From a virus, in the UHGV virus genome UHGV-1292719: a stretch of DNA of 28,171 nt. One strand, written 5' to 3'. The translations under genes were made by a program, and so were the position numbers. Below, one piece after another: positions 1,454 to 2,487 of the stretch. The notes under the pieces are model-generated. The model made no database searches. It saw only the letters and a list, made by a program, of their open reading frames with translations, and was not told the DNA's origin. Each line of letters opens with the position of its first letter. Positions within the stretch are counted from its first letter, which is position 1.

Positions 1454-2194
1454 TCAATGTTGAGGAAGTGAATTAACTGCATTTACGATTGGTTCTAACG
1501 AGAAACCAGTCCCAATGCCAGGATTGGCATTAAGATTCAACATTTCATTAACCATTTGCAGTGAGCGACTGAACATATCTGCCATTCGTCCAAAGTTAAC
1601 CCCCATGACTTCCACTGACATTTGCTGTGCTGCCTGCGCCAAATAGCCGCGAAGCTGAGCAACTTCATTAGAGAGCTGCTGCGCATCAGGCGGCAGAATG
1701 TATCGACGTTGAGTAACAATGCCTACAGCTTCTCCCGTTTCCCGGTCAATAATTGGACCGCCTGAATTTCCACCATTAACCATTCCATCAAGAGCAAAAC
1801 GCCCACTTTCCAGAGGGGCGGAAATAATCCCTTCATTCGTAAGCAATTGAGGCAGCCCATGCGGATACCCGGCAAAGATTAACTTTTTGCCTCGAGTTGG
1901 AGTAAATCCTACAGATGGTTGAAGTACTGTTCTCCCGGCAGGAAGCGGTGATTGCAACCGCATAATCGCAAAGTCGTTGTCACCATCAATGTACAATATT
2001 TGAGCTTCTATATGCTCATTAGATTCAGTCTGAAGGTTAACATGATTAATTTGACGCAGATTCTGCAAGTTACAGCAGGCGGCGACAACATGAAAATTGG
2101 TTACGACCAGATCTTCTCGCATAAAGCTGAACCCACTACCACGAGAATCCCCTGCAATGACCTGAAAAGTTGCGTTGGCTAGAGTTTGATGCAT
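1454..2194 (-). CDS. trypsin-fold (S1/chymotrypsin-like) serine protease, no signal peptide, with ~90-aa C-terminal extension
   Basis: 246-aa ORF; catalytic-triad motifs in order His (VVTNFHVV), Asp (DNDFAIMRL), Ser (GNSGGP); GGAG 7 nt upstream of the ATG; no hydrophobic N-terminal leader. Confidence 0.8.
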   Translation of the reverse strand: MHQTLANATFQVIAGDSRGSGFSFMREDLVVTNFHVVAACCNLQNLRQINHVNLQTESNEHIEAQILYIDGDNDFAIMRLQSPLPAGRTVLQPSVGFTPTRGKKLIFAGYPHGLPQLLTNEGIISAPLESGRFALDGMVNGGNSGGPIIDRETGEAVGIVTQRRYILPPDAQQLSNEVAQLRGYLAQAAQQMSVEVMGVNFGRMADMFSRSLQMVNEMLNLNANPGIGTGFSLEPIVNAVNSLPQH

Positions 2195-2250
2195 CGATTT
2201 GCTCCGATACCGGTGTGTGAAAAAATCATAATGAATTCATCCACCAGAAT

Positions 2251-2271
2251 AATTGATGTGTCACATCAATT
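2251..2271. promoter_or_regulatory. perfect 10-bp inverted repeat (operator-like) between the small ORF and the protease gene
   Basis: AATTGATGTG-T-CACATCAATT read directly; a further ACATCAATT half-site copy sits near 2294-2302. Confidence 0.45.
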
Positions 2272-2307
2272 TACGCTCGAAATATTCAATACATCAATTA
2301 GCCCGTA

Positions 2308-2487
2308 TCATTTTTGAGCTGTCTGTAACTTGAGATCAAGCGTGCATGATTCACCTTCAGTGCTGCTTTTAACAACTACCAGCTCTAGCACATCGCCTTC
2401 CTTATGTATTTCATTTTCCACAAACCAGTTCTTAGCTTCTGAGATGGAGTTAACAACCGAGATAAACCCATGGCCTTCTTTTTTCAT
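2308..2487 (-). CDS. small hypothetical protein (59 aa) upstream of the protease
   Basis: Hand-translated (below the ORF-track length cutoff): [59 protein letters not shown]; GAGG ~10 nt upstream of the ATG. Confidence 0.4.

Follow-up and report, generated by a model that had tools for sequence, protein, structure and literature searches.

The 28,171-nucleotide stretch of DNA analyzed here in full (the window), from the virus genome UHGV-1292719, contains the late region of a lambdoid prophage, whose gene order reads from right to left. Between the lysis and packaging genes lies a cassette of two genes on the minus strand: an open reading frame (ORF) for a 59-amino-acid protein at 2308-2487 and, downstream of it, an ORF for a 246-amino-acid trypsin-fold protease at 1454-2194. 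The spacer between them holds a perfect palindrome at 2251-2271 and an extra half-site, and a terminator-like hairpin follows the protease. These features had been listed in an earlier reading made from the sequence alone (the sequence-only reading), and all were found again at the positions it had given. A prophage of Escherichia coli SCU-171 (NZ_CP054363) shows the identical arrangement at 98.5% identity, and there RefSeq labels the protease an “S1 family peptidase” and the product of the small gene a “hypothetical protein.” The question addressed here is what this cassette is and what its protease most likely does.

The protease matches the Pfam family Trypsin_2 (PF13365) over residues 19-159, with an E value of 1.4e-20 and 74.9 bits against a cut-off of 27.6 bits. 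Its motifs TNFHVV, DNDFAIM, and GNSGGP provide the catalytic residues His35, Asp74, and Ser144, which are invariant across phyla in 31 aligned homologs down to 35% identity. The same alignment reveals a second invariant block far downstream of the triad, N222-A-N-x-G-I-G-x-G230. The protein has neither a hydrophobic N terminus nor any other hydrophobic segment (the highest 19-residue Kyte-Doolittle mean is 0.96), and we thus regard it as cytoplasmic. The earlier description of a 246-residue protease with a complete triad and no signal peptide is confirmed by these results. The protease is also under purifying selection, with an omega of about 0.16-0.17.

Structure prediction places the second invariant block within the protease fold. 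The AlphaFold2 (AF2) model has a mean predicted local distance difference test (pLDDT) score of 84, with values above 90 in the core and at residues 226-232 and values of 55-70 in a helical hairpin. The catalytic core spans residues 1-164. Helices 169-191 and 201-222 (pLDDT 55-70) exit the second beta-barrel after strand 156-161, and the chain comes back as strand 227-232 (block mean pLDDT 94) and a terminal helix (234-242). The inserted hairpin thus takes up approximately residues 165-225 in the model, and the fold is completed by residues 222-242, which form the NANxGIGxGF strand and the last helix. The top PDB fold matches returned by Foldseek are the protease domains of HtrA1, DegS, and MucD, with E values of about 1e-12 for HtrA1 and DegS. 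The GIGxGF strand corresponds to the GIGFAIP strand of HtrA, and the hairpin of about 60 residues occupies the position of loop L2 of HtrA proteases, after which the fold ends normally. A HMMER alignment instead laid residues 163-215 onto the C-terminal helix and PDZ linker of Mycobacterium tuberculosis HtrA1; this was rejected for the insertion model, because the invariant NANxGIGxGF block and the confidently modeled strand at 227-232 match the HtrA GIGFAIP strand. The sequence-only reading had proposed a C-terminal extension of about 90 residues, which has to be replaced: alignment and model show a helical hairpin inserted in place of loop L2, after which one more strand and one more helix complete the protease fold.

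The protease has an HtrA-like core, yet it is not an HtrA. The HtrA/DegS/DegP group (S1C) provides the best structure and sequence match to the catalytic core, and the GNSGGP and GIGxGF strand motifs are common to both. However, HtrA, DegS, and DegP use a PDZ domain, a signal peptide, or a membrane anchor, whereas the window protease has none of these and carries the hairpin in place of L2. Pfam matched no PDZ domain in the protease, and the chain ends 100 residues past the catalytic serine, a length made up of the helical hairpin plus the last strand and helix. The NCBIfam cut-offs for HtrA proteins were likewise missed by a wide interval (degP_htrA_DO, 47.6 versus 416 bits; MarP, 52.7 versus 250 bits), and domain E values are alike, at about 1e-12 to 1e-14, for HtrA/MarP housekeeping proteases and for defense-associated trypsin domains. 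A profile search of 1.84 billion cluster representatives returned 60 clusters of the protease family at E <= 1e-30, together with a wider shell of proteins of about 260 residues that also align across the insertion. Large proteins among the profile matches were considered as sensor fusions and rejected, since they are multi-trypsin repeat or PDZ proteins.

We evaluated the cargo status of the cassette by its distribution. It is present in 29 of 5,426 complete E. coli genomes, 27 of them with the full upstream region, and is chromosomal every time. About 30 IMG/VR prophage contigs carry it as well, and neither DNA nor tblastn searches gave a match in 50,697 GenBank phage records. The flanking Rha-downstream segment of the prophage backbone (window 2688-2840), with its stretch resembling the insertion sequence (IS) IS21, has matches in 3,496 E. 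coli genomes. In every enterobacterial case, the cassette lies after the spanin genes and before the terminase genes. The phage backgrounds in which it occurs include a TerL/DUF1073-type head module in the window, a P22-type module (L002), lambda-type tail genes in a lambdoid prophage (L003), lambda Nu1/gpA together with an S49 protease (L084), and TerL/HNH (L094), and the contents of the slot differ among L001 to L003, L084, and L094. Because the same slot is occupied in prophages with differing head and terminase modules, a morphogenetic role is excluded and the cassette is cargo. It is a rare, mobile prophage moron that is independent of phage morphogenesis, and the earlier proposal of a nonessential, horizontally moving insert in the spanin-terminase slot agrees with this comparison.

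Distant homologs of the protease extend the picture beyond prophages. We compared the 6-kb flanks of 17 full-length homologs with 32-48% identity from Salinisphaera, Arcobacteraceae, Pseudohongiella, Pirellulales, Acidithiobacillus, Limibacterium, Bacteroides, Lysinibacillus, Anaerolineae, Microbacterium, and others. Two of them lie in type I restriction-modification operons: in L017, the gene order is hsdM-protease-hsdS-217aa-hsdR with overlapping stop and start codons, and in L013, the protease starts 16 bp after an hsdM-S pair that is itself preceded by hsdR. A TIR protein gene ends 59 bp upstream of the protease in L009 and lies two genes upstream in L008, while a KAP-family NTPase gene comes after the protease in L011 and an HNH_5 protein gene in L005. 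Several further loci are mobile elements, including an integrase island (L089), and integrases and a transposase occur among the neighbors. Apart from the TIR proteins (L008 and L009) and one unannotated pair with 24% identity (L011 and L013), the loci have no neighbors in common; since neighbors are otherwise not shared among distant loci, the protease itself is the mobile unit. In an uncultured bacterium (L019, 5992-6738), the protease homolog is inserted on the opposite strand between a tail-tube (gp19-like) gene and a tail-sheath gene, and this contractile-tail cluster represents a second kind of phage cargo slot. That distant homologs are embedded in restriction-modification operons of type I and elsewhere adjoin genes for TIR proteins or a KAP NTPase lends circumstantial support to a defense role.

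The small gene ends 113 bp upstream of the protease gene and is a real gene, with a Nei-Gojobori ratio of nonsynonymous to synonymous substitution rates (dN/dS) of about 0.17 (for example, dN of 0.24 and dS of 1.77 versus L098). About 24 of 32 viral contigs have it, always 112-113 bp from the protease gene and next to proteases that are 100% to 51% identical, and it never occurs without the protease, which is present in all 19 viral contigs bearing the small protein. The converse does not hold, as about 8 of the 32 contigs (L004, L094, L099, L107, L113, L120, L122, and L123) have the protease without an intact small gene. In L004, where the protease is 88% identical, the small gene is reduced to its last 11 codons, and in the other seven, the protease comes directly after the o-spanin gene or other DNA. 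The identities of the two genes are uncorrelated across 105 pairs (r = 0.17), with discordant cases in both directions (protease 91% and small protein 66%; protease 72% and small protein 90%). There is thus no codivergence, and we conclude that recombination in the conserved spacer reshuffles the two genes. Judged by these comparisons, the small gene behaves as a dispensable accessory of the protease and not as an antitoxin locked to a toxin. The partner gene of the sequence-only reading therefore stands as a real gene that never occurs without the protease, but it is not an obligate partner, being missing at intact protease loci and showing no coevolution.

Little can be read from the small protein itself. 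It is acidic (pI 4.6-5.2), and its AF2 model is poor (pLDDT 62), a C-terminal beta-hairpin being the confident part. No PDB fold match was obtained and no DNA-binding fold was predicted from this model. Pfam, PADLOC, and PHROGs gave no match, and NCBIfam gave a lone subthreshold match to RNase HII (E = 0.031; 14 versus 350 bits). A large-database search returned six relatives, all close, and the gene is known solely upstream of this protease family in prophages of Enterobacteriaceae. L102 carries a divergent 76-amino-acid relative (about 4700-4920) with 42% identity and an N-terminal extension, 80 bp upstream of a 76%-identical protease and separated from it by unrelated sequence, from which we conclude that word-based searches capture just part of the small-protein family.

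The spacer is 87% conserved in an alignment of 19 distinct loci. Its palindrome, AATTGATGTG-T-CACATCAATT (2251-2271), has a perfect 10-1-10 structure, and on the coding strand a third AATTGATG half-site (2292-2299, minus strand) repeats the left arm in the same orientation. AATTGATG occurs three times in the whole window, each time within the 49 bp of 2251-2299, and the rest of the window, the immunity region among it, contains no sites related to the palindrome. The window has four perfect inverted repeats whose arms are 10 bp or longer and whose loops do not exceed 10, versus 0.57 expected from Markov simulations. The other three are located at 1-24, 19828-19857, and 25722-25745, and the one at 19828-19857 follows a 743-amino-acid ORF (17579-19810) and looks like a terminator. 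Across the 19 loci, the left half-site AATTGAT is invariant, while the right half varies (CATCAATT, CATTAATT, TATCAATT, and CACTGATT). The conserved core is thus ATTGATG-N5-CATCAAT (7-5-7), and the perfect 10-bp symmetry is confined to this lineage. The palindrome element is likewise missing from loci in which the small gene is absent and the upstream DNA is unrelated.

Downstream of the palindrome, at 2225-2240 (minus strand), lies the block ATGAATTCAT-TATGAT, in which another 10-bp palindrome leads into a hexamer resembling a -10 element. It is near invariant as ATGAATTCAT-TATGA(T/A) and is followed by the GGAG ribosome-binding site of the protease (2202-2205, minus strand, 7 nucleotides before the ATG), in which GG is invariant, GGAG is present in 17 of the 19 loci, and every column is conserved at 90% or more. 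If TATGAT is a -10 element, the palindrome would be centered near -43 with no -35 element, and we infer from this spacing alone a geometry typical of activator-dependent promoters. The palindrome could also form a hairpin in the coding-strand RNA: changes in its right arm are mostly transitions that keep G-U pairs, and 96% of cells in the alignment pair if G-U is allowed. However, there are no compensatory changes, no separation from shuffles, and an unremarkable fold energy (z = -1.06). The palindrome may act either as a DNA operator or as an RNA hairpin. The perfect palindromic operator of the sequence-only reading is thereby retained as a perfectly symmetrical sequence in this DNA, but its symmetry is not conserved beyond the 7-5-7 core and it is a candidate operator. 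The further idea that the small protein binds the palindrome finds no support, the protein being acidic and having no recognizable DNA-binding fold in its predicted structure. Among known sites, an FNR-like or CRP-like assignment was rejected by eye, as the spacing is TTGAT-N7-ATCAA and not N4, and likeness to Fur, ArgR, or LacI-type sites was not convincing.

The two ends of the cassette carry further noncoding elements. A conserved leader (2488-2600, minus strand) lies upstream of the small gene, with GAGG 10 nucleotides before the ATG. Within it, three E. coli loci that diverge by 13-15% in their coding sequences show 100% identity over the 75 bp of 2488-2562, which represents either unusually strong noncoding conservation or recent recombination; the same segment contains a weak promoter-like match, TTGAAG-N17-CATAAA. 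At the other end, a hairpin with a U-tract that resembles an intrinsic terminator, GCCACUgGCaaguGCgAGUGGC followed by UUUUCUAUU, lies about 30 nucleotides past the protease stop codon (approximately 1394-1424, minus strand). The RNA fold of this region (1385-1456, minus strand) has an energy of -22.1 kcal/mol (z = -1.79), and a simple terminator scanner missed the hairpin owing to an internal mismatch. The cassette accordingly has ribosome-binding sites, a conserved control region of 113 bp, and a terminator of its own, and the control region and the terminator suggest that it is expressed independently of the late operon.

The surroundings of the cassette in the window are as follows. To its right lie the Q antiterminator gene (4558-5103, minus strand) and the genes for holin, endolysin, and Rz/Rz1 (3046-4192), with genes for tRNA-Thr(TGT) and tRNA-Asn(GTT) (4311-4466, minus strand) between the Q and holin genes. 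Overlapping the end of Rz is a 50-amino-acid hydrophobic ORF (2906-3058, minus strand), which RefSeq lists as a hypothetical protein where it occurs in related prophages. Between this ORF and the leader is an end remnant of about 95 bp (approximately 2600-2700) of an IS21-family element (IS100kyp), with 92-95% (about 94%) identity to the region after istB. Elements of the IS100kyp type that match the remnant are present in thousands of E. coli chromosomes and plasmids. The solo remnant accompanies the cassette in E. coli, where the shared sequence extends from 1698, inside the protease gene, to 2833 and includes it, and it may mark the route by which the cassette arrived.

To the left of the cassette, a second cargo pair (779-1272, plus strand) converges with the protease gene from the opposite strand and encodes a 53-amino-acid protein of the DUF2158/YodC family and a DUF6953 protein. 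The pair has its own terminator-like hairpin at about 1282-1304. Other prophages have DUF2560, or YlcI/YnfO plus DUF1398, at this spot, and because of these differences we view the spanin-terminase slot as a site of several independent inserts. Beyond the pair lie the small terminase gene (201-751, minus strand) and the first part of terL. Whereas the small terminase of SCU-171 is encoded by a single gene for 183 amino acids, a 1-bp deletion at about 436 breaks the window copy into two ORFs (201-452 and 434-751), and this reflects either a sequencing error or a packaging-defective prophage. A further proteinase is found as cargo in the L003 prophage of E. coli L3452210II, where a gene for an “SDH family Clp fold serine proteinase” (11600-12595) has been inserted in the opposite orientation into the interval from Q to the holin gene, so that this prophage bears both the Clp-fold proteinase gene and the S1 protease cassette.

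Trypsin-like proteases are established switches in bacterial immunity, where they activate pro-nucleases of the metallo-beta-lactamase (MBL) fold in Hachiman, AVAST, Lamassu, and DRT systems (PMC12799240; bioRxiv 10.1101/2025.09.03.673762). The trypsin-MBL pairs of Hachiman, AVAST, Lamassu, and DRT/retron systems resemble the cassette in having a cytoplasmic PA-clan serine protease in an immune-type context and a separate gene immediately upstream of it. However, they have an MBL-fold gene, whereas the neighbors in the window are the 59-amino-acid ORF, DUF2158, and DUF6953, with no MBL, and the Lactamase_B family is absent from the 25 most frequent Pfam families listed for 148 neighbors of the distant homologs. 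The window protease is a stand-alone protein of 246 residues that is not fused to a sensor, and the PADLOC matches cover just the protease domains of large profiles. The trypsin-MBL domains lack the helical insertion at the L2 position, and their profiles align to residues of about 10-165 alone. The upstream gene also differs, being 59 codons long, belonging to no family, and showing the correlation of 0.17 with the protease versus the 0.68 reported for trypsin-MBL pairs. The cassette is therefore not a member of the trypsin-MBL module, with which it has the protease domain alone in common.

Other precedents share single aspects of the cassette. The anticodon nucleases PrrC and RloC are suicide effectors that stay latent and are encoded within restriction-modification loci of type I. 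The placement of the L017 homolog, flanked by hsdM and hsdS with stop and start codons that overlap, is the one known for prrC, and the L013 homolog is last in its hsdR-hsdMS operon; unlike PrrC and RloC, these are proteases and not nucleases, and the window copy has no restriction-modification partner. Lit of the e14 prophage is a single-protein abortive-infection zinc metalloprotease that is latent until a phage late protein appears. It is a functional precedent for a prophage-encoded protease, although its fold is unrelated to that of the window protease. Lambda bor encodes an outer-membrane lipoprotein, and many morons are conversion genes. Morons of the bor type occupy the same slot between Rz and cos or the terminase genes, have their own terminator, and are variably present among similar prophages, but bor lies on the opposite strand, whereas the cassette has the orientation of the late operon and its product is a cytoplasmic enzyme. 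To our knowledge, the protease of gasdermin-activating systems, CHAT/Craspase, and trypsin-MBL pairs always is either bolted to a sensor or comes with a dedicated pro-effector.

The alternatives that we weighed, in order, are a late function that benefits the phage, another fitness or counterdefense function of the lysogen, a toxin-antitoxin pair, and a structural protease, and the last two are contradicted by the tests presented here. The protease could be a distal gene of the lysis or late operon that degrades host proteins as infection ends, tunes lysis, or disarms a host factor, an explanation that we consider unlikely. It would account for a protease gene that is always co-oriented with Q-S-R-Rz and directly follows the spanin genes, starting just 64 bp past the o-spanin gene in L120 and L122; in L094, L099, and L123, too, no small gene intervenes between the spanin genes and the protease, and an independent promoter was not detected either. 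A late function is nevertheless hard to reconcile with full-length homologs in nonphage settings such as restriction-modification operons and small genomic islands, with the lack of any match in the 50,697 phage records, and with a frequency of about 0.5% in E. coli genomes in which the flanking prophage backbone is very common, and the conserved control region and terminator suggest expression that does not depend on the late operon. Similarly unlikely is a different benefit to the lysogen, be it a protease for stress or protein quality control or a counterdefense protease that removes host immune proteins. In fold and sequence, the protein is as near to the HtrA/MarP housekeeping proteases as to defense trypsin domains, and conversion genes such as bor are frequent among morons. 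Yet it has no PDZ domain, signal peptide, or anchor of the kind used by quality-control proteases of the HtrA type, and a patchy, cross-phylum, island-borne spread with embedding in restriction-modification operons fits conflict systems better.

A toxin-antitoxin or addiction pair, in which the protease is the toxin and the 59-amino-acid protein a labile antitoxin and autorepressor at the palindrome, is more improbable still. The layout invites this comparison, with a small gene placed ahead of that for a larger enzyme, a control region that contains a palindrome, an acidic small protein like many antitoxins and inhibitors, and no small gene without its protease in the 19 viral contigs that carry it. 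Against it stand the intact proteases without a small gene in about 8 of 32 contigs, the uncorrelated divergence of the two genes, the lack of a predicted DNA-binding fold, and the position of the palindrome between the genes, downstream of the small gene and not upstream of the pair. The cassette protease as a head-maturation (prohead) or other structural protease is effectively refuted by its distribution, and we give this almost no credence. Nothing more than the proximity of the gene to the packaging genes speaks for it. The cassette co-occurs with P22-type heads, which have no prohead protease, and with lambda-type S49 and ClpP-type head proteases encoded elsewhere; the gene lies outside the head module, upstream of terS; and most related prophages lack the cassette. 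The sequence-only reading had likewise argued that this is not a prohead protease, and the co-occurrence of the same cassette with P22-type, lambda gpA/Nu1-type, and other packaging and head modules upholds that view.

We favor the interpretation that the locus is a prophage moron whose stand-alone cytoplasmic protease most likely protects the lysogen against other phages, by abortive infection or exclusion. The case is circumstantial, and we hold its chances to be about even. Of the defense, abortive-infection, or toxin-like functions envisaged earlier, defense thus keeps circumstantial support from the context of distant homologs, while the toxin-antitoxin variant is contradicted by the tests. 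Several results weigh against a defense role. Only domain-level matches to named defense systems were obtained with PADLOC v2 for the window protein and ten relatives (RT-Protease_XI at 2e-13, weak matches to Avs1b and HamA1, and LmuA for relatives); NCBIfam and PHROGs gave nothing specific for the protease, and our literature search found no paper on this protease family. The sequence-only reading had recognized no named system, and these domain-level matches bear it out. A recognizable defense-type gene lies within two genes in roughly a third of the distant loci, and housekeeping genes adjoin several distant homologs. No consensus sigma-70 promoter that would drive expression in the lysogen was called in the control region. 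In several prophages, the protease lies 64-145 bp after the o-spanin gene on the late-operon strand, and this placement implies that it is also made late in lytic growth, which fits a phage-benefit role equally well. The insertion shows no sign of positive selection (pN/pS of 0.47 versus 0.31 for the core, with synonymous sites saturated), and autoinhibition by the insertion, as inferred below, depends on a region of the model with moderate confidence.

Under the defense interpretation, a mechanism can be proposed around the hairpin. In HtrA proteases, loop L2 shapes the S1 pocket and takes part in activation as part of the activation cluster, which makes an insertion at the L2 position the obvious candidate for latency, sensing, or both. 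The inserted hairpin would hold the protease latent until a phage-derived cue displaces it, and the freed protease would then cut essential host or phage proteins. The acidic 59-amino-acid protein may be an enterobacterial add-on that modulates the protease as an inhibitor, adaptor, or substrate, and not a repressor, and the ATTGATG-N5-CATCAAT element may control expression of the protease separately from the small gene. A bolder form of this proposal, which we regard as conceivable but doubtful, is a one-protein immune sensor and effector. Here, the L2 hairpin would be the receptor for a phage protein, binding would unlock the active site, and the protease would kill or arrest the cell. One and the same unit of 245 residues would have entered the late operons of prophages, restriction-modification operons of type I (in the manner of prrC), and TIR loci in at least ten bacterial lineages, and the enterobacterial small protein would serve as a decoy substrate or brake.

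The cassette represents an uncharacterized form of protease-based, phage-borne accessory or defense gene, distinguished by its conserved architecture and cross-phylum context. Protease switches are a growing theme in bacterial immunity. If the proposed mechanism is true, a minimal trypsin-fold protein of 245 residues that travels by itself among prophages, restriction-modification operons, and islands and has its own regulatory insertion would be a new and simple model, small enough for structural study, in which the latency of a cytoplasmic protease and its release upon infection could be followed. The cassette would, in addition, provide a concrete case for the little-explored slot in which lambdoid prophages carry cargo between their lysis and packaging genes, and should the protease act for the benefit of the phage at a late stage of infection, it would be an unrecognized accessory of lysis cassettes.

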